Shown in pieces: positions 25,435 to 37,199 of a stretch of DNA of 64,000 nucleotides (position 1 is its first letter; the number at the start of each line of letters is the position of its first letter). This stretch comes from a virus (Duplodnaviria; Caudoviricetes), in the IMG/VR virus record IMGVR_UViG_3300037420_001376, positions 1 through 64,000 of that record; one strand, given 5' to 3'. Below the pieces are notes generated by a model that saw nothing but the letters and a program-made list of their open reading frames with translations, was not told where the DNA came from and ran no database searches. The translations under genes and the position numbers were made by a program.

Positions 25435-26649
25435 TTAACCTGCAAGGAATCCGGTGCCACGCTTGTACTGCGTGGGAATATCGTAAGTACCAGAAGCTTT
25501 AATCTGCATAATTGCAGCACCGCCGCGCTGACGAATACCCGAACCAAAGCTGCGGGCATAAAAACCGTCAACGAGAGGATAGCGCTGGTAGTTACCAGGA
25601 ATAATGCGAAGACCCTGCATTGCCGGATTGGCGTGCTGGCGTAAACCAATCGGGTTACCGAGATTAAATCGGCCACCATAACCAATACCAACAAGATAAC
25701 CGGGAGGAATATAATCCTCTTCAACAATATTCCAGAAACCGTACGAGCCGATTACCGCTAATCCACCAAAAGTAGGTGCAGGCTGATTTCCTAATAAACC
25801 TTCGGCATTAGGCAGCATCATTGCTGGCTGAGTGGGCGAAGGAATAAAGTCATATCCTGCAGTCTGACCATTGTTATTCACAACACCACGACGGAACTGG
25901 CGAATAACGTCTGTCTCTGCTTTATTTGCCAAAAGCAAGAAACTGGTTCCGGCCTGCGGTGAATAACCATGCTCTGCAATAAGCTCCATTAAATCTTCAA
26001 CATCAGAAGAGTCAACGGTGCTATTGCCAGAAACAACGTAATGGCTGTGATTTTCGGTAAAGGTGTTGTTCTTAAAGCGTGGCGGTGCAACACCCTCACC
26101 GTTATACAGCGGGTAAACGTTGTACGCCTGGTTACGAATATTGGCCCGACGAGTACGATTGTCAAAAAGGGCTTCCATAACCTTTTTGAAAATAAGTCGC
26201 TTATCGGCCCAGAGAATGCTTTCGTGAATTGCCTCAACCTGGCGGGCGTCGGCTTCAGCTAAAAACATCCATGTATAGGCAGTACGCTTGTCGTAGTGAC
26301 GTAAATCGTAGCCCATTTGGAAAACTTCAATCGGCAAACCACTACCACGAGGAATGCCCATTTCGGTGGCTTCCTCGAACGTGGTTTCGCCAATTTGCAC
26401 CACAGGCTCAACCGGTGTAGTAACCGGATAAGTCAAAAGTGCAATTAGGTCATCCATTGCCTCATTGTAAATCGCAATGGATTCTGCGAAAGAATTCCAC
26501 AGAGCATTTAAATCAATACCGTCAGCGGTAACCGTAACCAAATCGCCTTGGGTAAGAATACCTTCTTGGCGAACCGGTGCAGTACCACCGAAAATAGGAC
26601 CAACGGGAATGCCCTTGACGAACAATCCGTTTTTCTTATATGCCATCAT
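25435..26649 (-). CDS. major capsid protein
   Basis: ~404 aa after scaffold/decoration genes, followed by strong hairpin; start moved to ATG 26649 (GGAAGG RBS). Confidence 0.85.
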   Translation of the reverse strand: MMAYKKNGLFVKGIPVGPIFGGTAPVRQEGILTQGDLVTVTADGIDLNALWNSFAESIAIYNEAMDDLIALLTYPVTTPVEPVVQIGETTFEEATEMGIPRGSGLPIEVFQMGYDLRHYDKRTAYTWMFLAEADARQVEAIHESILWADKRLIFKKVMEALFDNRTRRANIRNQAYNVYPLYNGEGVAPPRFKNNTFTENHSHYVVSGNSTVDSSDVEDLMELIAEHGYSPQAGTSFLLLANKAETDVIRQFRRGVVNNNGQTAGYDFIPSPTQPAMMLPNAEGLLGNQPAPTFGGLAVIGSYGFWNIVEEDYIPPGYLVGIGYGGRFNLGNPIGLRQHANPAMQGLRIIPGNYQRYPLVDGFYARSFGSGIRQRGGAAIMQIKASGTYDIPTQYKRGTGFLAG

Positions 26650-26677
26650 GGCATTCCCTTCCAATCTGACTTTAAAA

Positions 26678-27370
26678 TTACGGAGTCGCGTCAAGAACAT
26701 TAACGATTAAACGATCTTTTTCTGCGGTATGTCCAACATAAACACCGTCAGAACCCTTTGTTGCGGTAACGGAACCGTCAGCATGTGCGTAATAATTCTG
26801 ACCTGCAACCGGAGTGGTTGCACCAGCGGTTACCGTTGCACCGGTTCCTGCAGCTAAAGTAAATCCATCGGCCACTTGCGCCGAAAAATTAGGTGCAGTT
26901 CCAGTAACAGTGACATCGGCATCAACCATATTGTCGTCAACGGCAACAATTGCTGCCTCAACAGCAGTATTAGTTGCGTTAAACGCAATATTGCCGGTAA
27001 CTTTTCCGTTTACCGTTAAAGTGAAGCTGCCAGAACCAACGGTTACAACAATCGCGTAAGTACCGTCAGCTGGATTTGCAACAAAGTTAACGATTTCACC
27101 ATGTTTGCCAACGTCACATGGATCACCAGATTGGTTATTAATTCCACCGTCTAAAAGGTTTCCATGAATATCTGCGCCAACCGGCACAATCATTAAACCT
27201 TTAATTCCGGTTTGACCACTTCCGATTACAACTGCACCATCAGAATTTAATCCGACACCGAGAACCACATTGGCTTCAGTATCTAAATCAATATCTTCGG
27301 CCAGAACACCACGAAAGTTGCCCATGTAGCCGTCGTATTTATCCCAACGCGGCTTAGTCGCCAGAGCCAT
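26678..27370 (-). CDS. capsid decoration / minor head protein (putative)
   Basis: Between scaffold and capsid; Thr/Val/Gly-rich beta insertion; GGAGG RBS. Confidence 0.6.
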   Translation of the reverse strand: MALATKPRWDKYDGYMGNFRGVLAEDIDLDTEANVVLGVGLNSDGAVVIGSGQTGIKGLMIVPVGADIHGNLLDGGINNQSGDPCDVGKHGEIVNFVANPADGTYAIVVTVGSGSFTLTVNGKVTGNIAFNATNTAVEAAIVAVDDNMVDADVTVTGTAPNFSAQVADGFTLAAGTGATVTAGATTPVAGQNYYAHADGSVTATKGSDGVYVGHTAEKDRLIVNVLDATP

Positions 27371-27447
27371 GTGAATCCTCCATTAGAGTTGTTCGGCAGC
27401 AATAGTATCAATCTTGTGTCCTGAAACTCGGGAGGACACGCGGCGTG

Positions 27448-28212
27448 TCACCCTAAAGCTGCACGTCCAGAAGCAATCACCGGCCACTTGGCTTCCAGTT
27501 CCTTGCGGCGTTGGGCTGCAGTGGGATTGGTCGGTGCCGGTCCTGGGGGATTTCCGGTAGAACGGCGTTGACGCGATGGTGGCGGATTATCGTCAATCGT
27601 GGGCTTTTTCACCAAATATGGATAATCTTTAGCAATACGAGAAAGTTCATTTTCAATACCACTAGCTGTTGCTCTTCCGGCTTCTAAATCAACCTCAAGA
27701 TCATAACCACCGGCGTCTAATTTAGAAATCACATCATCGACATTATGAAATTGAAGATTCTCATTTCCCTGAATTGCGTTCACCACTGCAAGGCGCTTAA
27801 TAACTTGATCCATACGATCAATTGTTTCCTGAGCCTTAGTTAAATCCTCAGTTAAGGCTTCTTCGCGACCAAGGCTTTTCTTGCGCTCGTCCTCTTCTTT
27901 AGTCTGATATCCTTGAAGCGTCTGAGTAAGCTCAGTATTTTTCTGAGTTAATTGAGCAACCTGCGTAGTTAATTGCGCAAATTGTTCTGGCGTAATTTCT
28001 TTTGTACCATCCCCGCCACCTGAACTTGTGGCACTATCGTCAGGATCACCAGAAGGTTTATTTTCGGCGGGAGTAGAACCAGCGGGCTCGGCTGAGGTTC
28101 CACCGAAAATCGGCAAAGCTGCTTTAGCTGCTTCTAAAGAATTAATCTTTACAGAAAAATCAAAACTATTTGCAGGTGTTAATCCGCTGTATTTGGTTTG
28201 GAAGGGCATCAT
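27448..28212 (-). CDS. scaffolding protein
   Basis: Low-complexity N-terminus, long coiled coil, Pro-rich C-terminus; start moved to ATG 28212. Confidence 0.8.
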   Translation of the reverse strand: MMPFQTKYSGLTPANSFDFSVKINSLEAAKAALPIFGGTSAEPAGSTPAENKPSGDPDDSATSSGGGDGTKEITPEQFAQLTTQVAQLTQKNTELTQTLQGYQTKEEDERKKSLGREEALTEDLTKAQETIDRMDQVIKRLAVVNAIQGNENLQFHNVDDVISKLDAGGYDLEVDLEAGRATASGIENELSRIAKDYPYLVKKPTIDDNPPPSRQRRSTGNPPGPAPTNPTAAQRRKELEAKWPVIASGRAALG

Positions 28213-28243
28213 TTCATGTTCTTTCATGGGCTGGGTAGAGCGT

Positions 28244-29176
28244 TTACGCTGCATTGCTAATCCAATCGTTATAGTACCCGGCTGTCAAGTTTCTAGTGAA
28301 CACATCAAGAGATTCGACCTGCGGTGTCACAAAGCACCGGCATTGCGGGTGGGGTTTGGGAGGTACGTTGTCAACGTCAAACAATTGTTCTTTGTAACGA
28401 TCACAAATTTCTATTACGCCATCTTCAATTTCATGCGTTTGTGAAGTGTGCCAAACCATGCCTTGAACCCATGGACGATCTTGTGCAAGTGCAACACTAG
28501 TAGCATGAAAAGCATTATTAAGCTCGGTGCGACCGAGACGAAGGGCAGCATAACTGACCCCACCAGGGGTATTTGGCCTAATTGATCTTCTAACTTTTTC
28601 TGCAATTTCTTTCGCACTAGCGCCCCTAACTATTCCAGAATTAATTTCTCTTTGCACCCACGTATTTGCCATACGCCGGGTTCGATAAACTCTAGTAGAT
28701 AATGGCTGATTTGATTTTTCGAGGCGCGACACCAAGTTTGCCACTGATAATTCTGCCTGCACGTATTGGGATTGAATAAAGCCCTCAACGTTCCCTCTAG
28801 AGTTTTTAGCTGATTCAGCGAAAGCTCTGGAAAGAAAGTCTCTATCAGTTTCTGAGAAGGCAGTAACGGCTGCTCTAGCGGATTCTTTAGACCCGGCAGT
28901 AATGAGGGGGATTTGTTTTTTGAAGAGGTCATTGAGAACCTCGTTGACTATTTTCATCACTAGTCGCAATTGCGCAGTGCGGACACCCGATGAAAAAGTT
29001 GAGTTTGTGCTCAAAGCAGAGACTTCTTGTGCTGCATCTTGCGCTGCTTGGATTAATGCGGTACGAACCTTTGTATCGTGCCGGGACTGTATCATCAGAT
29101 ATTTCGTAAGCCATCTTTTCCTCAAAGTTTCAAAATCATCATTTAAACCCCCATCTAACGGAGTCGGCCTAGTCAC
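28244..29176 (-). CDS. MuF-like head morphogenesis / minor capsid protein
   Basis: C-terminal PPKPHPQCRC motif. Confidence 0.8.
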   Translation of the reverse strand: MTRPTPLDGGLNDDFETLRKRWLTKYLMIQSRHDTKVRTALIQAAQDAAQEVSALSTNSTFSSGVRTAQLRLVMKIVNEVLNDLFKKQIPLITAGSKESARAAVTAFSETDRDFLSRAFAESAKNSRGNVEGFIQSQYVQAELSVANLVSRLEKSNQPLSTRVYRTRRMANTWVQREINSGIVRGASAKEIAEKVRRSIRPNTPGGVSYAALRLGRTELNNAFHATSVALAQDRPWVQGMVWHTSQTHEIEDGVIEICDRYKEQLFDVDNVPPKPHPQCRCFVTPQVESLDVFTRNLTAGYYNDWISNAA

Positions 29177-29609
29177 CCAGTAACCTCCACTCCGTTACGT
29201 CACCCCTGCTGACCAGGAAATACCGCCAACCCAGCGCCGGATTGGGCCAACCCACCAGATCACGCGGGCTCGGCCAGGGGTAGCCGTTGGGATGGGTATG
29301 ATAAATACCTAAAATCTCAGTTTGCTTTTTTCCATAAATTTCGTCTAACACCCATTCAGTGTCTTTTGGGTGCATATAAAAATTCATGCGCGGTTCTAAA
29401 TGTGAATTTAAAACACCGATCACTTCAAATTCAGACGTAATGAATCCGCATCGTTCTTCTGAATGTCTAAAGCACTCGTCCAATAATTCAGAACGAGTGC
29501 TTTCAGGCAAAGGATTATGAGAGTAGAAAAGCTGTTCGGCTTGTCTACCCTTAGATGAAATTAAATAATTACTATGTCCAGGGTGCGCTGGATTATTAAG
29601 GTCCAACAT
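29169..29609 (-). CDS. JAB/MPN+ (JAMM) metalloprotease
   Basis: EERCG plus H-T-H-x7-S-x2-D (HTHPNGYPWPSPRD), complete JAMM signature. Confidence 0.85.
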   Translation of the reverse strand: MLDLNNPAHPGHSNYLISSKGRQAEQLFYSHNPLPESTRSELLDECFRHSEERCGFITSEFEVIGVLNSHLEPRMNFYMHPKDTEWVLDEIYGKKQTEILGIYHTHPNGYPWPSPRDLVGWPNPALGWRYFLVSRGDVTEWRLLGD

Positions 29610-29621
29610 GATGCTCCGCGT

Positions 29622-30197
29622 CTACTTACCACGTCTTTGTGGCCTAACTACTTTTTTACCAGCAATGGCTCGCATTCTCGTGTCGTATTTTTTCACCCCT
29701 TTTCGAGTCTGAGTAAGCGGTGTTTTATGCTTCCCACGACGTAAAATAATCGTAGGACCGGCTCCGCGAGAACTACCAAGGCGAGCCTGGTGTCTACCGA
29801 CATTTGCTCGAATTGTGGGATTTGTAATCGTAACGTTTTCTTTGAAATATTTCCTGACTTTACCTCGGGTAGTTCCATAGGGCATCGCCTTATTTCCAGC
29901 TTTAGCTAATGCTTTATCGATTGCGCCTTTACGGTTGGTGTTTTCGACCCGAACGTATCCACCAAACACAAGGCGTTTGCCAGTTCCAGGCAAAATTGAG
30001 CCGGTATTAAATCCTGCAGTTTGGCTCCTTTTATTGGCTCGAAGATATGGCACAGTGTTTTTTGTAAAACCATGCTTACCAACCCCACGAGTTACAGGAT
30101 TACTACCATATAATCTTTTAGACTTTCTTTTACGTGCTCTACGAGCCTTTGCTAGCGCTGCCGCTCTAGCAGGTGTAAAGACATAGGCTCTAGTCAT
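29622..30197 (-). CDS. Arg/Lys-rich basic protein (array member)
   Basis: N-terminal TPARAAALAKARRARKRK. Confidence 0.8.
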   Translation of the reverse strand: MTRAYVFTPARAAALAKARRARKRKSKRLYGSNPVTRGVGKHGFTKNTVPYLRANKRSQTAGFNTGSILPGTGKRLVFGGYVRVENTNRKGAIDKALAKAGNKAMPYGTTRGKVRKYFKENVTITNPTIRANVGRHQARLGSSRGAGPTIILRRGKHKTPLTQTRKGVKKYDTRMRAIAGKKVVRPQRRGK

Positions 30198-30199
30198 GA

Positions 30200-30568
30200 T
30201 TACCGCACTCTACTACGAATTCTTGTTCCTGTGTGCCTACCAGAGATGTGTGTTGCTCGCCCACGACCGTAGTAACGGAGCGGTTTATGATTTGAACGCA
30301 AAGCCACGCCGGGGGCATTTGGATCGACCCGTGGTCCTTTAGATAAATAACCTTTGACCGCTTTATAATGTTTAGGAACTAATTGAGGATTGCGTGCATA
30401 ATTATTTGCATGATGAACTAAAGCACCTACGGCAACCGTACCCGCCACGGAGCCAACAGCTTTTAATCCACCAATAACAGCGCGTTTACGCCTTTTTCGT
30501 GCGCTCGCTTTTTGTGCTCGTGCTAAAGCTGCGCGACGTGCAGGGGTCATGCGATAGCGTTTAGCCAT
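30200..30568 (-). CDS. Arg/Lys-rich basic protein (array member)
   Basis: TPARRAALARAQKASARKRR then Gly/Ala hydrophobic segment. Confidence 0.8.
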   Translation of the reverse strand: MAKRYRMTPARRAALARAQKASARKRRKRAVIGGLKAVGSVAGTVAVGALVHHANNYARNPQLVPKHYKAVKGYLSKGPRVDPNAPGVALRSNHKPLRYYGRGRATHISGRHTGTRIRSRVR

Positions 30569-30569
30569 A

Positions 30570-31364
30570 TTATTCTCCGAAGTCTTTAATCCACTGCTCT
30601 AAAGCTTTAGCCTCAAGAGTTTGTTTTGGTTGGCCCTTGCGCGTAACACCTGCACGAGAATTAACTGGTTTAATGGGTGGCTTTTTACCTTTTAATTTCT
30701 TACCGGCATATACGCGAGTCACCGAACCGTCAGCGATCATGGAATGCAAAATGCCAGAAGCATCAACATCTTCGCCAGTAATTTTTCCTTTAGCCTGCGC
30801 ATGTGCGTCTACTGCACGAGAAGCGGCATTGCCGGTAACTCGCTTTCCATAAACCAAACCTTTAACGCCTTTAGGTAAAAATTTATCAACGTTATATGGC
30901 CGATCAGAACCGGAAATAAGTTTATTGGTAACTTCTACATCTCGTTGTTGACGTGGGAAAGCATTATTGCGCGATGGATCAACAATATTGGGATTAACTT
31001 TTCCAAGGTCAATGCGCGTCATGGTTTTTGCGCCCTTGGTAGCAGCGGTTTTCTTGGTAGGCTTTTTAATTAAATTTCCACCAATAGCATTGGCTAAACG
31101 AACTCGTTCTTTAGAACCCGGTTGCACTGCGGCTTTCCAACGAACCGAAGTTGCCTGAATACTGGATCTATTTTTATATCCATAGATCGCTGCGGCTCCG
31201 ACACCAGCAATGGTTGCGCCGACAATTGCACCTTTAATCGCTGAATTGCGGCGGCCCTTGCGTTTTCTCGCGCTAATTGCCTGCGCTCGTCTAAGCGCGA
31301 CAGCACGCTTTTGTGTATATCTATATTGGCCTCGCCGCACATTTCGCCCTCGTTTCTTAGCCAT
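30570..31364 (-). CDS. Arg/Lys-rich basic protein (array member)
   Basis: TQKRAVALRRAQAISARKRK then GAIVGATIAGVGAAAIYG. Confidence 0.8.
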   Translation of the reverse strand: MAKKRGRNVRRGQYRYTQKRAVALRRAQAISARKRKGRRNSAIKGAIVGATIAGVGAAAIYGYKNRSSIQATSVRWKAAVQPGSKERVRLANAIGGNLIKKPTKKTAATKGAKTMTRIDLGKVNPNIVDPSRNNAFPRQQRDVEVTNKLISGSDRPYNVDKFLPKGVKGLVYGKRVTGNAASRAVDAHAQAKGKITGEDVDASGILHSMIADGSVTRVYAGKKLKGKKPPIKPVNSRAGVTRKGQPKQTLEAKALEQWIKDFGE

Positions 31365-32032
31365 TATCGCCTCTTTAAGTTTCTCAAGTAAACATCTAAA
31401 GGTTGACCATTGACTGTTGCCACACTTCTTGGTCGTTTCGGAACGAATTTTTTATCTTTGTAGTCATCACTTAATCGAATATCTCGACTGGGCAAACTAA
31501 CCGATTTTCCTTTAGCAAAAGTATATCCCGGAAAAATCTCTTTTCCACCAAGTGTTTTAATTGGTGTTTCTTTAGGTAATCGTTTACCACCAGAACCATA
31601 TCCACGAGTGGATTCTTTTCTATACTTTGGTGCAAATGGATTCTCAAAATGCTGACTGGCTAAAAGTCTATTGGTAGTTGTAGTGCCCAAAACCTGCTTC
31701 ATGGTTACCGGAGAGTGATTATAAGAAAGCCTTGTTTTAGTTGCACCTTTAGCACGAATTAAAGAAGCACCAGCTCTATTAACCGCAAATCGTGTACCAC
31801 TAGGCAACTGTTTTCCTGTGACACTAGAAACGTTGGCGTGTGTGGTTTTAGAAAAACTAGAGCCCGAAAGACGATGGCGGGCAACAACACCTGCTGTCGT
31901 TAAAGCGCCAACACTGACGGCACCAACGCCAATAGCAATTCTGCGATTACGCTTCTTGCGTGCTTGAACTAAATTCCTACGCGAAGCAACACGCTGTCTT
32001 GCAGTAGTTCTTTTACGTCTACGACTAGCCAC
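31364..32032 (-). CDS. Arg/Lys-rich basic protein (array member)
   Basis: TARQRVASRRNLVQARKKR then IAIGVGAVSVGALTTAGVVA. Confidence 0.8.
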   Translation of the reverse strand: MASRRRKRTTARQRVASRRNLVQARKKRNRRIAIGVGAVSVGALTTAGVVARHRLSGSSFSKTTHANVSSVTGKQLPSGTRFAVNRAGASLIRAKGATKTRLSYNHSPVTMKQVLGTTTTNRLLASQHFENPFAPKYRKESTRGYGSGGKRLPKETPIKTLGGKEIFPGYTFAKGKSVSLPSRDIRLSDDYKDKKFVPKRPRSVATVNGQPLDVYLRNLKRR

Positions 32033-32474
32033 GTCTTGCTCGCTTTCGTCTTTGTGTTCTCGGGCTCATTCCATCATATTTAGAACGAATCTTTTTCTCA
32101 TAACCTGGCACCAATCCGGCTCTGCGCTTTGCATCATATAAACCACGCGGCCTACGCACATACGTTGCCTCACCAGAAGAATTAACTTTAAATGCACCTT
32201 TTCGCGCAGGAATTGGCCGTTTAACAGTACGAACTTTGGTGACATTTCTGCCCGGTGGCAAAGCTAATTGATGGGTGGGATGAAAAGCAGATGGGCGATA
32301 TGGCCTGCGTAAATGATTAACGTAGCTTCTACCGGCTACACCCAAAACCGTTGCGGCACCAATGGTTCCAACAATACCTGCGCCAATGGCAATTCTTTTA
32401 TTTCTTTTACGGCGCGCAGCAATCAAGTTGCGCCGTGACGCAACTCGCTGTTTTGCACTACGCCGTTTAGCCAT
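32025..32474 (-). CDS. Arg/Lys-rich basic protein (array member)
   Basis: SAKQRVASRRNLIAARRKR then IAIGAGIVGTIGAATVLGVAG. Confidence 0.8.
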   Translation of the reverse strand: MAKRRSAKQRVASRRNLIAARRKRNKRIAIGAGIVGTIGAATVLGVAGRSYVNHLRRPYRPSAFHPTHQLALPPGRNVTKVRTVKRPIPARKGAFKVNSSGEATYVRRPRGLYDAKRRAGLVPGYEKKIRSKYDGMSPRTQRRKRARRG

Positions 32475-32695
32475 TAACGTCTACGTCTGCGCTTTCTGTT
32501 CTCAATATCATTAATCTCTTTAAGATTAACGATCATACCCGCCACGCCTAAAGTGGCTTTATTTCCAGCCCTACGAACACCTTTAGCAATCCAATAACCA
32601 ACCTGATTTTTGGCGCTGGTGTGTTTCTTTCGCGCAGAAATCCTTTGGGCCTTTAAAATGGATTGCCTTCGTTTAGGCGTTAAACGATAGGCCAT
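32474..32695 (-). CDS. Arg/Lys-rich basic protein (array member)
   Basis: RLTPKRRQSILKAQRISARKK; TAATG coupling. Confidence 0.75.
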   Translation of the reverse strand: MAYRLTPKRRQSILKAQRISARKKHTSAKNQVGYWIAKGVRRAGNKATLGVAGMIVNLKEINDIENRKRRRRR

Positions 32696-33054
32696 TATCG
32701 CCTCTGCTTTGCATAAGCGCTATAAACTTGAGCGTGGGTTAAGTGCTTTACTTTCTTTTTAGATGTTTTGCGCTTCTTTGGTCGTAAAACCCCAACAGCA
32801 ACGTTGTGTCTACCTACGCGACCACGAACGGCAACATGTTGAGAGCTTCTATGAGCACTAATTCTTTTAGTTTTCTTTCTAGACTTAGAATGAGAAACTT
32901 GTGCTCGATAACCTTTTTTATGCGCTAAATATGCAGCACCACCTGCTAACGCAACACCGGTGGCTACTCCTGCAGCTATACGACGTCTGCGTCGTTTCTT
33001 TCGGGCTTTTTCTAGATTTCTCCTAGAAGCAGCTTTTTGCCTAGCGGTCGCCAT
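32695..33054 (-). CDS. Arg/Lys-rich basic protein (array member)
   Basis: TARQKAASRRNLEKARKKR then IAAGVATGVALAGGAAYLA. Confidence 0.8.
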   Translation of the reverse strand: MATARQKAASRRNLEKARKKRRRRRIAAGVATGVALAGGAAYLAHKKGYRAQVSHSKSRKKTKRISAHRSSQHVAVRGRVGRHNVAVGVLRPKKRKTSKKKVKHLTHAQVYSAYAKQRR

Positions 33055-33055
33055 A

Positions 33056-33493
33056 TTAATATCGCGTTCTTACAGAAACCGATCCATGACGGCTTGCAAC
33101 AAACACACGATTATGCTTGGTAGCACCGCGACTACGCGCGACGGGGCGTGTATTTGAATAGTGCACTCTGCGCTTTTTATCTTGCTTTAAATGTGCGGCA
33201 TAGTCGTTATAGAACTTTTTAGAATTAGCGCTGTACTTTTTAGCAGCGGCTTGGCCTTTTTTATGTTTGCCATAAGCGTGTGCAACATGGGCTGCGCCAT
33301 AAGCGACTAATGCAGCGCCAGCAACATAATTTCCAGCATTGCGCCGTAAATGTCCTTTTACGCCACCACCAGAAATTTTACGATTGGCAGCGGCTAATTT
33401 GCCTTTACCTTTTCCACGGCGTTTTCGTGCAGAAGCGGCTTGAGCTTTTTTCAACGCCGCTCTACGAGCAGGCGTCATTCGATGTGCTGCCAT
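33056..33493 (-). CDS. Arg/Lys-rich basic protein (array member)
   Basis: RMTPARRAALKKAQAASARKRR. Confidence 0.8.
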   Translation of the reverse strand: MAAHRMTPARRAALKKAQAASARKRRGKGKGKLAAANRKISGGGVKGHLRRNAGNYVAGAALVAYGAAHVAHAYGKHKKGQAAAKKYSANSKKFYNDYAAHLKQDKKRRVHYSNTRPVARSRGATKHNRVFVASRHGSVSVRTRY

Positions 33494-33660
33494 TATCGCC
33501 GCCTAACAGTAAACCTCGGTCCACCACCAATAAATAATAAGTACACCCCATACACACACAGCAATATCCCAGCAATGAGCAGAATAATATGCAATACGTA
33601 GGGCATTACGACTAAAAAAGCGATAAGTAAACAGGCGATTCCAGCAAGTAACGCTCCCAT
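33493..33660 (-). CDS. small two-TM membrane protein (55 aa, not in ORF track)
   Basis: MGALLAGIACLLIAFLVVMPYVLHIILLIAGILLCVYGVYLLFIGGGPRFTVRRR; TAATG overlaps at both ends. Confidence 0.75.
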   Translation of the reverse strand: MGALLAGIACLLIAFLVVMPYVLHIILLIAGILLCVYGVYLLFIGGGPRFTVRRR

Positions 33661-33845
33661 TAGCGTCTACCTTTCTTTCCAGAATGCTTGGATTCGGGCA
33701 GGCGGCGATACCTTATTTTTTTGCCGCCTTTAGTGCGATGGGCCATGCGATGCGCGAATTCTTTTTTGTTCGCGAAAGCCCATTTCCATTGCTTTTTCGA
33801 GAAGAAGCCAGTTTTGCGACCTTTACGCTTTTTCTTTTTTGCCAC
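33660..33845 (-). CDS. small basic protein (first of array)
   Basis: MAKKKKRKGRKTGFFSKKQWKWAFA; Lys/Arg-rich. Confidence 0.7.
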   Translation of the reverse strand: MAKKKKRKGRKTGFFSKKQWKWAFANKKEFAHRMAHRTKGGKKIRYRRLPESKHSGKKGRR

Positions 33846-33884: not shown

Positions 33885-35537
33885 CTACGCGGTCACACCC
33901 AAATCAACGGTTTGCTCATCCGGCGTGTTGGGCACGGGATTGCCCTGGTCATCGACGCTTTGGCCCTGATCTTGGCCACCTGCGCCCAACGCGAACGGAT
34001 CTAGCGCTGCGGCCTGGGCAGCACTTTGAGATACCAACATTTCTGCTAAATCATCATCGGTTAACGGATTTCCCAAAGCATCATGAGTTGGCCACTTCCA
34101 TCCTAATTCTCTTAGCTTTTGAATCATCATTACTGTGAGAATCATATTGGATGAATATAAAAGTTGTGTCTCGGTGATTTCAGTATCACGGTTTTTCGGC
34201 ATGGGATCATCAAACACACACACCACGGTAAGCTCTGCCATTTTTGCCGCATCGCCAAACATTTCTGGCTCATAGGCGGGCAACCATTGCGTGGTAATAT
34301 CGAAATGCATCTGATCTAAAATCATGAGCATTTCAAGTTCTAGCTCTTCATTAGACGCCAACAAAGGCATCATTTGAAGTTGTAGCGATATTCCGCTTTC
34401 AGCAACCGCCACATCAACGCGACCAATCGCAATTTCAGGCGTACCTGAAGATTCGCTAATACCTTTTTCATCAATCCAATTCATGTGTTCTTGGAATGGG
34501 GAAACCGAATCCACACCAGTAACTTTGTCAAATTTCTGTTCTTGACCAATTTCAATGACTTGTTTCGGCCCAATATTCCAATCGGTGGGATTGCCATTAT
34601 CATCTTTGGGTCTACCGGCAGTGGTGACATACATGCCCAAACCCTGAAAAACAATGGTGCAATCTTCATCCGTTAAAGATTGATTGATCGCATAAAGGAG
34701 TGTTTCAAGCCCCGTAAGTATAGAGTGTCCCCAAGTAGAATTTTGAGGCGCTCTTGTTCTCCATTTATAGATGGGAAGATTTGTGATGGGCACAGAATCA
34801 GACCCAATGAATTCCGGATCTTCGTCTTGATCACTATTGACAACTCGTTCTTGGTCTTCACGAGCTTTAACACTGCGATCATCCCATTTCCCTAATTCAT
34901 AAAACTTCAGTTCGCTAGTGACGCCAGTGACCGTGCCGGTTTCATCATAGACTTTGCGAAAAGTACGAACTTTAGCCACTTGCTTATCGGGCTTATCCGG
35001 TTCACGGAAGTCCTGAACTTTTTCAACAATATGATAACCACTTACTTCTTTGGCATCATGGGGAGACTCATTGATTTCAAAGATAAATCGGGGATCGAGT
35101 TCTTCGATACAAATTCGTTTTCCAGAAGTTTTATTAGGTTTGGCGTATACATAAAAGGCTGCATCTCCACGGACGAGGCCCCATCGTTTGTTTGACTCAA
35201 ATTTACTCCTAATGCCTTCGCGCTTATACGTATCTGCCCACCAAGCATCAACTGCTAATTGTGCAGCTTCATCACCAGTAGCATCAACAAACCATTGAAG
35301 ATTTTTACCAAGAAAACGAGTAGTCGCCTCTACAATCTTTTTAGCATTGGGAACAATCAGGGGAACTTGATCTTCACCACGTAAATTCAGCGCAAGATTT
35401 ATAGTAGAGTTAATATATAAATCTTCGTAATAATCGTACGCCTGAATGCGCTTTAAATCCCACGGGTCAACAATATTATCGTCGCCAGTTGTCAAAAAAT
35501 CTAAAGCGGCTTCATATTGCTTATTATTGTAGGGCAT
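33885..35537 (-). CDS. portal protein
   Basis: 550 aa directly after terminase; SGISLQLQMMPL motif typical of SPP1-like portals. Confidence 0.9.
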   Translation of the reverse strand: MPYNNKQYEAALDFLTTGDDNIVDPWDLKRIQAYDYYEDLYINSTINLALNLRGEDQVPLIVPNAKKIVEATTRFLGKNLQWFVDATGDEAAQLAVDAWWADTYKREGIRSKFESNKRWGLVRGDAAFYVYAKPNKTSGKRICIEELDPRFIFEINESPHDAKEVSGYHIVEKVQDFREPDKPDKQVAKVRTFRKVYDETGTVTGVTSELKFYELGKWDDRSVKAREDQERVVNSDQDEDPEFIGSDSVPITNLPIYKWRTRAPQNSTWGHSILTGLETLLYAINQSLTDEDCTIVFQGLGMYVTTAGRPKDDNGNPTDWNIGPKQVIEIGQEQKFDKVTGVDSVSPFQEHMNWIDEKGISESSGTPEIAIGRVDVAVAESGISLQLQMMPLLASNEELELEMLMILDQMHFDITTQWLPAYEPEMFGDAAKMAELTVVCVFDDPMPKNRDTEITETQLLYSSNMILTVMMIQKLRELGWKWPTHDALGNPLTDDDLAEMLVSQSAAQAAALDPFALGAGGQDQGQSVDDQGNPVPNTPDEQTVDLGVTA

Positions 35538-35546
35538 CGCACTAGC

Positions 35547-37199
35547 CTACTTGCTCATCCAGTTAGACCTGCGCTTATTAGTGTGGCGTGTCGCAATCCC
35601 AGCAGGTGTCGACCCATACCCATCACCAGTTCTATACCGGGTATTTCCCAGATTCGACAGAAACTTAGCCTTAGAAATTCTAGTACCACCACCATACTGT
35701 TCAGAAGCACTGTGGTAACGACTTGCTAAAAATCTACCTAAAGCTTCTGGCGTATGGTCATCTTTTTTGAGTGGTAATTCAAACCTTTTAACCGAAGTTT
35801 CTTGTTGCTCGTCCTTTTTCTCAGGATACCGGTATTCACCGAATTCATATATCGTATGTGGACATTTGGTCGAAATCATTAATCTTGGTCTTTTAACATC
35901 CTGCCTCGGAGGATGAGATTTCCAATTTGTCTTATTGACTTCCGTATCGTTTACTCGATCTTTTAACGCTAAGCGAATAAGGTTGAGTCGATCTTGTAAT
36001 TCGCCGCCGGTGTGGGGCCTAGCTCTAATTTGTTTCCCAGCTCGCAAAAATATATTTTCCAAGGTTCTGGTATCCCCGGGTAGTGCAGGGTCGGGGAAGA
36101 ATTCTTGACAGCTATCGGGTAACAAGCCTCTTCGGAGAACTTCTTTTGCGAATTCATCAGGCGCTAACGTGTCTTGATATAATTCATCGATAACATTTAT
36201 TTCACCCCAAGGACCAATTTGAATAAGCAGCCATACCGAAGGATTGCGATATCCATAGTCAACAGCAGCCACCGTTTCCCAACTCGGATTGTATGGTAAT
36301 AGTCGAGTGTGTGTCTCTTCGTTGTATTCCTTAAATACCTTTCCAACGAAATCTGTAAAGTCAGCGGCAATTTCCTGCTGAAACTTAGGGATGGTAAGGG
36401 CATCTGCTTGAACCACGATTTCTGAATCAATTGTCAATCCTTGCATGGCAACTATTTCAGCAGCGGTGTATTCAGGGTTTTCCTGCATCATGTAAAGCAT
36501 TTGCTTCACATGAGCATCAACAGTTTCTTCAAGATAAACGTATGGATTATACCAACTAGGAATTCTATGAGCGCTCCATAATTCTTTCCTACGAGCGTCC
36601 ATAAATAACTTATAAAACCAATTTTTACCTTCTGGTGTGGAAGTGAATTTAGCCCATCCCTTATTATCCGAAAGCGACGGCATCACATACTGCGTCCACA
36701 CCTCTTCTTTAAGTTTTGCCGCCTCTTCCATATGCACACCGCTTAACGCCTCGCCAACCAGCGTGTCAGGGTGCTGTGCAGATTTTGCGCTATAAATAAA
36801 ACGACCATCCCACAATGAGATAGTCATTTGGCCAGAACCAGGAGAATTATATGATCCTGGTTTATCCATGGGAATTTCTAATCTACGACATAAATCCCAA
36901 AAGACACGAAAGGGCTTCTCAGAGTCAGAATACTGTGGACCTACTGACCAAAATTCTCTACGCTTGCCTTCGGCTTTTAAATGATGAGCGATCTTTTGAG
37001 TCAGTGCCGCTTCTGGCAATAACTCATTGGCCACCATTTTAGATTTACCAAAACGTCGTCCACAAGAGGCAACCAAAAAACGGGCTGGATCTTCCATTAA
37101 ACGCAATTGTGCGCGATGAGGATCGAAGACTTTTTCTTCTCTACCGTTTTCTGGATTTACATAATCTCTATCCAGTATGGCCCACTTTGAGAATCCCAT
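35547..37199 (-). CDS. terL: terminase large subunit
   Basis: Walker A GRRFGKS, Walker B VHMEEAA, TSTPEGKNWFY coupling motif, AVDYG nuclease motif. Confidence 0.95.
   Translation of the reverse strand: MGFSKWAILDRDYVNPENGREEKVFDPHRAQLRLMEDPARFLVASCGRRFGKSKMVANELLPEAALTQKIAHHLKAEGKRREFWSVGPQYSDSEKPFRVFWDLCRRLEIPMDKPGSYNSPGSGQMTISLWDGRFIYSAKSAQHPDTLVGEALSGVHMEEAAKLKEEVWTQYVMPSLSDNKGWAKFTSTPEGKNWFYKLFMDARRKELWSAHRIPSWYNPYVYLEETVDAHVKQMLYMMQENPEYTAAEIVAMQGLTIDSEIVVQADALTIPKFQQEIAADFTDFVGKVFKEYNEETHTRLLPYNPSWETVAAVDYGYRNPSVWLLIQIGPWGEINVIDELYQDTLAPDEFAKEVLRRGLLPDSCQEFFPDPALPGDTRTLENIFLRAGKQIRARPHTGGELQDRLNLIRLALKDRVNDTEVNKTNWKSHPPRQDVKRPRLMISTKCPHTIYEFGEYRYPEKKDEQQETSVKRFELPLKKDDHTPEALGRFLASRYHSASEQYGGGTRISKAKFLSNLGNTRYRTGDGYGSTPAGIATRHTNKRRSNWMSK

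Follow-up and report, generated by a model that had tools for sequence, protein, structure and literature searches.

A leader motif shared by the capsid and scaffold of a Patience-like phage, with a JAMM metalloprotease as the candidate leader peptidase

How are the head proteins of a tailed phage trimmed when no prohead protease of a familiar kind is recognisable in its genome? The question is raised by the head module of the IMG/VR virus record IMGVR_UViG_3300037420_001376, which is 72,328 bases long and estimated to be 100% complete, and of which the first 64,000 nucleotides (the window) were analysed here. The capsid protein is 85.6% identical to gp23 of mycobacteriophage Patience (cluster U), making this phage a relative of Patience, and it belongs to a capsid family present in over 160 sequenced actinobacteriophages and over 300 contigs from metagenomes. 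Its capsid and scaffolding proteins carry the same short N-terminal motif, PIFGG, and a gene for a JAB/JAMM metalloprotease lies in the same head module, between the portal gene and the scaffold and capsid genes as prohead protease genes do, an order that is conserved in most relatives. Published N-termini of relatives strongly support the idea that the shared motif is the maturation cleavage site of both proteins. Our preferred reading is that the phage JAB/JAMM protein makes the cut, and we would put its probability at roughly 0.6 on the combined evidence of operon context, conserved catalytic residues, co-variation, co-loss and a docking model.

The capsid reads MMAYKKNGLFVKGIPVGPIFGG followed by TAPVRQEG, with P18-I-F-G-G22 closing the leader. 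Translation probably begins at the ATG at 26649, which is preceded by a Shine-Dalgarno sequence (GGAAGGGA). The scaffold reads …LEAAKAALPIFGG followed by TSAEP; here the start is ambiguous, with three candidate ATGs (28227, 28215 and 28212), and counted from the last of these the motif occupies residues 34–38. The hexamer PIFGGT is identical in the two proteins, and a shared exact 6-mer appeared in 1 of 20,000 composition-preserving shuffles of the N-terminal regions. The motif common to capsid and scaffold is real and non-random. The initial annotation of this locus had read the same two sites, ...GPIFGG-TAP and ...LPIFGG-TSA, at the residues and coordinates that we find (Table 1), and its description of the JAB/JAMM gene as intact and located in the head operon agrees with the domain analysis presented below.

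Experimental data from relatives place the termini of the mature proteins directly at this motif. In the 2.4 Å cryo-electron microscopy (cryoEM) model of Patience gp23 the first residue is Thr-20 (PMC11965321), and in the gp23 sequence, M-ATKELKIGGVPVFPIFGG(19)-T(20)APVRQEG, this residue directly follows FPIFGG19. The mature capsid start that had been predicted for the window phage, TAPVRQEG, therefore coincides with the first residues of the Patience model. For the Patience scaffold homologue, gp21, the N-terminal-most peptides were non-tryptic and began at residue 35, a terminus which the authors credited to neither trypsin nor initiation and left without explanation, and gp21 was counted among the N-acetylated proteins of this phage (PMC4324244). 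The gp21 sequence is …RVLPIFGG(34)-T(35)SPE, with residue 35 directly after the motif. Since the new Thr terminus is N-acetylated, cleavage may take place where a cytoplasmic acetyltransferase has access. The model of the Adjutor (cluster D) capsid gp17 starts at Asn-28 (PMC11965321) in the sequence …IIAVVGLSGHD(27)-N(28)QGGY, and the Adjutor scaffold has …ATGLTLSGHD-DD. Mapped onto the motif in this way, the published termini indicate that capsid and scaffold are cut at a common site, although neither publication connected them with a common motif or with the JAB gene (PMC11965321; PMC4324244). The Patience minor capsid protein retains its N-terminal Met (PMC11965321), and for this reason the homologous decoration protein of the window is not a substrate candidate.

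To see how far the motif extends we compared about 170 related loci (18 isolate lineages and about 150 IMG/VR loci). A nucleotide search with the head module gave no match among isolate phages, and the relatives were reached by protein searches. Automatic comparison of the best 6-mers in the leaders was noisy because stop-to-stop open reading frames (ORFs) hold untranslated upstream residues; it was replaced by a comparison anchored on the conserved N-arm (D-x6-D-x7-W) and completed by eye. A lineage-specific motif common to capsid and scaffold is found 8–14 residues upstream of the N-arm, with the pattern hydrophobic-Gly-small and then Asp, Glu or Thr after the cut. Its forms include PIFGG cut before T in clusters U and H, PIYGA and SIYGA before E in Gordonia phage Lambo, KFFAFGG before DGG in Suzy (identical in capsid and scaffold), LPFGG and PPFGG before E in cluster R, GLSGH before D in cluster D, DIVGA before D in Micrococcus phage Kurnik, and IWGG[ADE]G in a large metagenomic clade. 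The Gly at P2, the second residue before the cut, is nearly invariant across the family, and P1 is mostly G, A or S with H, R, Q, N, C and F also represented. Capsid and scaffold motifs co-vary: among 54 dereplicated lineages, comparison of the capsid leader with its own scaffold gave a mean of 23.07, against 16.81 ± 0.53 for the scaffolds of other lineages (0 of 10,000 permutations). The hosts of the family span at least seven actinobacterial genera, and the motifs differ among phages that grow on one host strain, M. smegmatis mc2 155. This favours a specificity encoded by the phage, and a single host protease would explain it poorly. Across the family the leaders are linear peptides of 10–60 residues, the long ones containing a conserved helix-like element, ELVDLxxLGLF, upstream of the motif. 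In one metagenomic capsid leader (L082:985-1164) the motif occurs twice in tandem (…QVPFGGDLLSNVPFGGDDATGGY), which could represent two cleavage sites or a recent duplication.

The candidate enzyme, whose counterpart in Patience is gp19, matches the Prok-JAB family (PF14464) with an E-value of 7.5e-10 and 39.1 bits, compared with a cut-off of 25, and is the only Prok-JAB match in the 72,328-base record. Its JAMM catalytic motif is complete, comprising E52 and H104THPNGYPWPS114PRD117. In 50 JAB homologues, with identities down to 19%, residues E52, H104, H106 and D117 never vary, and conservation of S114 is at least 90%. A structure model of the window protein (predicted local distance difference test score, pLDDT, of 88.9) has as its best Foldseek match the Pyrococcus enzyme PfJAMM1 (5ld9_A; E 5e-6; template modelling scores 0.60/0.67). 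The best structural matches are Pyrococcus JAMM1 alone and bound to SAMP2 (5ld9/5lda), DSY2949 (2kks), Cap3 with its CD-NTase (9ild) and AMSH-LP, and a profile of the 50 homologues matches 2kks at 5.5e-13 and 5lda at 2.3e-12. Searches of the whole record with the Peptidase_S78 (PF04586), CLP_protease (PF00574) and Peptidase_S49 (PF01343) models, which did not extend to S77 and S80, gave no match at E≤1. The earlier remark that an HK97- or ClpP-type protease cannot be recognised consequently holds for the complete record.

We also modelled the complex of JAB with the first 60 capsid residues and a zinc ion. This scored 0.70, compared with 0.00 for the best of three controls; the 0.70 mark is reached by 58 of 80 solved complexes and by 2 of 110 mismatched pairs. 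Agreement of contacts between runs was at least 56% and the pLDDT of the partner at least 48. The predicted interface is formed by residues 8–9, 11–12 and 14–24 of the leader (…IPVGPIFGGTA for 14–24) and by residues 52, 54, 70, 75–81, 104, 114, 116–117 and 119–123 of JAB. In the model, leader residues 14–24 contact E52, C54, H104, S114, D117 and the strand 75–81, with F20 and G21 lying on strand 76–79 beside D117 and S114. The model supports binding of the leader end in the JAB active site. Solved structures exist in which a JAMM enzyme is bound to a ubiquitin or SAMP tail, and the high score may therefore partly reflect likeness to them.

The distribution of JAB across the family follows that of the leaders to a large extent. 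Every leader-bearing isolate lineage has a JAB gene, usually immediately upstream of the MuF gene. Counting distinct capsid N-termini with enough flanking sequence, and with short leaders reclassified by eye, JAB accompanies about 60 leader-bearing capsids and is absent from 7, while about 9 leaderless capsids lack JAB and none has it. On a capsid-core tree (FastTree, midpoint-rooted, with weakly supported deep nodes) the leaderless state appears at least five times (in L119, L172/L175, L089, L105 and the L096 clade), with JAB absent each time. Two of these are complete genomes with terminal repeats, and no JAB was found anywhere in them by a search that did detect it in leader-bearing controls. 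The clearest case is that of L125 and L144, with capsids 81% identical: of the genes between a conserved 100-amino-acid ORF and the scaffold gene, L125 is missing JAB and MuF and nothing else, its scaffold has no leader and is shorter by 27 residues, and its capsid begins directly at the mature position. Leaderless relatives begin at the same position as the predicted mature termini.

That JAB is the cutter, and the stage at which it would act, we infer from these observations. In the proposed mechanism, capsid and scaffold would each be made with a short N-terminal leader ending in PIFGG, and JAB would be expressed from a gene translationally coupled to that for MuF, which overlaps its end by 8 nucleotides. 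JAB would bind the extended end of the leader in the groove that receives the ...LRGG tail of ubiquitin in deubiquitinases and would hydrolyse the ordinary peptide bond after the second Gly, leaving a mature capsid that begins TAPVRQEG and a mature scaffold that begins TSAEP. We lean slightly towards a broader version of the same idea, in which the whole Patience-like capsid family relies on a JAMM metalloprotease of deubiquitinase fold for head maturation, and this enzyme reads a short linear motif, hydrophobic-Gly-small, which is common to capsid and scaffold and co-evolves with the phage.

Several observations weigh against JAB as the leader peptidase. The main weakness is that four lineages without JAB (L086/L077/L104, L106-L108, L109 and L110) keep their leaders, which share G-[GA]-[AS] in both proteins (e.g. 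LPMQGGA-LGY with WPILGAS-EDD). One of these, G005 (L110), is a complete 58.7-kb genome with terminal repeats in which no JAB was found with the Pfam model, a custom profile, an unfiltered hmmsearch or a motif scan. In phages of Microbacterium, Curtobacterium and Arthrobacter the JAB gene sits at a distance from the head genes. Known JAMM enzymes depend on Gly at the position before the cut, which varies in other lineages of this family as listed above, and the leaders are not ubiquitin-like folds: in the window phage the piece to be removed has 22 to about 40 residues and could not form a beta-grasp fold at this length, even if the proposed cut does follow Gly-Gly. The initial annotation had proposed that a deubiquitinase-like enzyme clips GG-terminated leaders; of this proposal the cleavage site is upheld by the termini of relatives and JAB as the cutter has indirect support, whereas the ubiquitin-like framing fits poorly with linear leaders whose P1 residue is often not Gly. 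There is also a report from Patience proteomics of capsid cleavage at 82/83 (PMC4324244), which is at odds with the later cryoEM model and is contradicted by the presence of residues 20–82 in it (PMC11965321).

Some of these points are what would be expected if the leaders were removed by a host protease, in the way that host Prp acts in staphylococcal phage 80alpha, or by some other protease of the phage, with JAB serving instead in counter-defence against host ubiquitin-like conjugates or in an assembly role like that of lambda gpK. The conserved shared leaders of the JAB-less relatives (including the complete G005), the location of JAB outside the head module in some phages and the frequent absence of Gly at P1 all speak for such an arrangement, as does the fact that the closest PHROG families of JAB are labelled 'tail protein', from similarity to lambda K. 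We nevertheless regard it as unlikely. It does not readily account for motifs that differ within one host strain and co-vary between the capsid and scaffold of each phage, for the spread of hosts over so many genera, for the loss of JAB in each of the leaderless lineages (in one case along with both leaders, between capsids 81% identical) or for a docking model that sets the scissile region on the zinc site. Nor did the S78, ClpP and S49 searches bring to light an alternative protease family in the genome, and the JAB-less, leader-bearing clade yielded no consistent substitute, Pfam and PHROG giving nothing protease-like. On the capsid tree the JAB-less lineages with leaders adjoin JAB-less lineages without them, which fits loss of JAB first and of the leader afterwards, and is equally compatible with another, possibly host, protease. 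The MuF-like protein has its own claim to be the leader peptidase, and several records and PHROGs label it 'capsid maturation protease' or 'head maturation protease'. It is nearly universal in the family, adjoins the scaffold gene, has a conserved HPxCxC motif that could bind metal, was lost along with JAB and the leaders in L125 and is present in the JAB-less, leader-bearing clade. This role is ruled out, or at best extremely improbable, in view of five genomes, complete or nearly so (Suzy, Shrew, G009, G010 and G011), with leaders and JAB but without MuF, and of the leaderless L105, L089, L119, L172 and L175, which retain MuF; moreover, no protease fold or motif is recognised in the protein, and the 'protease' label has been carried over from families with MuF fused to other domains. 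Finally, the motif might be an assembly or interaction signal (e.g. for the portal or for scaffold–capsid contact) that is never cut, with the missing N-terminal density reflecting disorder. CryoEM cannot separate cleavage from disorder, and conservation of the helix-like element upstream of the motif in long leaders would suit a signal of this kind. This is very improbable given that those peptides of the N-acetylated Patience gp21 that lie nearest the N terminus are non-tryptic and begin exactly at T35, that in Patience as in Adjutor the ordered part of the capsid begins precisely where the shared motif ends, and that leaderless relatives begin at the predicted mature termini.

The lineages that depart from the usual arrangement have features of their own. 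ORFs with an HExxH motif occur in L110, L107 and L077 and were considered as substitute proteases, but they are not conserved across the JAB-less clade and were rejected. The example in G005 (L110:7086-8333) is a 415-amino-acid ORF with a zincin-like HEMAH motif, located between MuF and scaffold and without Pfam or PHROG match; it could be a non-orthologous replacement protease, although it is not conserved in sister contigs. In two other contigs the JAB slot directly upstream of MuF holds a DUF6527 zinc-ribbon-like protein of 96–112 amino acids with the pattern CxxC…CxxxxxxH (L104:7588-7878 and L077:3778-4116), which is also seen at this position in L086. Arthrobacter phage Wollypog (NC_070760.1) was rejected as a JAB-less phage with leaders, as it encodes JAB at about 54.5–55.5 kb (L100:1333-2355), at the far genome end, upstream of the packaging genes. 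This JAB is atypical, with 340 amino acids, the sequence EACG...HSHPSGDADMSPED and a long insertion between the catalytic Glu and HSHx7SxxD.

All genes of the region are on the minus strand and are transcribed in the order terminase, portal, basic proteins, JAB, MuF, scaffold, decoration protein and capsid, so that JAB stands two genes upstream of the scaffold gene (Table 1).

Table 1. Positions of the head genes and leader motifs in the window, with related copies in other loci
Feature	Coordinates	Strand	Remarks
Terminase	35547-37199	minus	
Portal	33885-35537	minus	
Run of small, very basic proteins	29622-33845	minus	between portal and JAB
Very basic gp18-like protein	29622-30197	minus	phrog_12708; conserved ...VFGG-YVRVEN
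JAB/JAMM (MPN+) zinc metalloprotease, candidate leader peptidase	29169-29609	minus	146 amino acids; Prok-JAB
MuF-like minor head protein	28244-29176	minus	HPQCRC motif; Pfam Phage_Mu_F 2.2e-5 (below cut-off); several PHROG head-morphogenesis families
Scaffolding protein, Patience gp21 homologue	27448-28227; longest ORF to 28254	minus	Pfam PF06810 Phage_scaffold 2.2e-10; phrog_4866 6.2e-35
PIFGG ending the scaffold leader	28099-28113	minus	predicted cut after second Gly, between 28099 and 28098
Minor capsid (decoration) protein, Patience gp22 homologue	26678-27370	minus	phrog_5042 3.7e-46
Major capsid protein, Patience-like HK97-fold family	25435-26649; longest ORF to 26700	minus	phrog_3990 1.5e-173
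Capsid leader, residues 1-22, MMAYKKNGLFVKGIPVGPIFGG	26584-26649	minus	predicted cut after G22, between 26584 and 26583
PIFGG ending the capsid leader, residues 18-22	26584-26598	minus	
Patience gp23	L001:10061-11263		
gp18-like copy in a relative	L006:8471-9181		
gp18-like copy, Barnyard gp16			

The JAB gene has long been annotated as 'protease', 'metal protease' or 'JAB/MPN domain protein', on grounds of synteny and domain content. All of the 'capsid maturation protease' annotations in the family fall on orthologues of the window MuF or on the gp18-like basic protein, and PHROG labels of 'head maturation protease' fall on the window copies of both, in neither of which a protease domain is recognisable. 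The gp18-like protein is called a head or capsid maturation protease in PHROGs, in the RefSeq entry for Barnyard (gp16) and in Nocardia phage P3.1. The window and P3.1 copies contain no Pfam protease domain, and the label is probably an annotation error that has spread. Its ...FGG-Y sequence was considered as a third cleavage site and dropped as a weak candidate: 11 distinct homologues keep the motif G[GA]Y.R.E inside a block that is also conserved to either side of it, and the motif is probably structural. Several of the basic proteins upstream of JAB have a common N-terminal pattern, T-P-x-R-x-A-A-L-x-K-A...R-K-R, followed by a Gly/Ala-rich hydrophobic stretch. They resemble gp13–gp18 of Patience, which are virion proteins (PMC4324244), and they may be packaged internal or DNA-binding proteins. 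The MuF-like proteins of the family carry varied C-terminal cargo, including HExxH zincin motifs (HEFGH, HEYGH), ADP-ribosyltransferase and a papain-fold glutamine deamidase (L010:6784-9354, Nilo gp13; L008:4557-6497, Indlulamithi gp8; L017:6459-7877, Anakin gp14; and L105:3329-4837), which is the pattern of polymorphic MuF-toxins.

If JAB does remove the leaders, a new class of enzyme would enter capsid maturation, metallo- rather than serine-dependent. A deubiquitinase fold would then act on plain peptide leaders, in what would be the first JAMM enzyme with N-terminal leaders as its natural substrates. The same cut would explain the residue-35 terminus of Patience gp21 and the missing first 19 residues of its capsid, and would correct the reported 82/83 capsid cleavage site. 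It would also tidy the annotation of the family, in which MuF-like and basic proteins are called 'capsid maturation protease' and JAB a 'tail protein'. Patience, Adjutor and many of their relatives grow on M. smegmatis mc2 155, which makes the system easy to test. A search of the literature on JAMM, JAB or MPN proteins in connection with prohead or capsid maturation proteases found no prior statement of this mechanism. The new elements here are the motif, the way it matches experimental termini, its co-evolution across the family and the mechanistic link; the annotation of the JAB gene as a 'protease' was already known.

To our knowledge, all characterised prohead proteases are serine enzymes except the host cysteine protease Prp of 80alpha-like phages. 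In phage 80alpha, Prp processes the N-termini of capsid and scaffold at a motif which mimics the N-terminal extension of host ribosomal protein L27. The system described here is similar in that the same short N-terminal motif stands on capsid and scaffold, both are cut right after it, and a small leader is removed rather than a large delta domain. It differs in that the motif varies by phage lineage within one host, which argues against a single host-defined motif as for Prp, and in that the candidate enzyme is a JAMM metalloprotease encoded by the phage. The classical prohead proteases are HK97 gp4 (S78), T4 gp21 (S77), lambda gpC (S49/ClpP-like) and phiKZ gp175 (S80), all of them serine proteases. 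With these the proposed system shares an enzyme encoded by the phage between the portal and capsid genes, and the cutting of several head proteins at one short motif during maturation; unlike them, the candidate has the MPN/JAMM zinc-hydrolase fold.

Among prokaryotic JAMM enzymes, PfJAMM1 and HvJAMM1 act on SAMP proteins (PfJAMM1 cleaving after the Gly-Gly of SAMP2), Mec+ acts on CysO, Cap3 acts in CBASS, and a JAB deubiquitinase belongs to the bacterial ubiquitin-like (Bil) system. The window JAB has the fold and the E...HxHx7SxxD site of these enzymes, which cleave after an extended-strand C-terminal tail of small residues. They act on beta-grasp proteins or on a CD-NTase tail, usually at an isopeptide bond, whereas the substrate proposed here is a short unstructured N-terminal leader joined by a normal peptide bond to a structural protein of the virion. 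The tail-tip protein K of phage lambda (JAB plus NlpC/P60) offers a precedent for a phage JAB domain in a virion-assembly operon, with 34–35% identity by tblastn. Lambda K has its place in the tail-tip module and carries a second, fused hydrolase domain, whereas the window JAB is a stand-alone protein of the head module that accompanies one capsid family.

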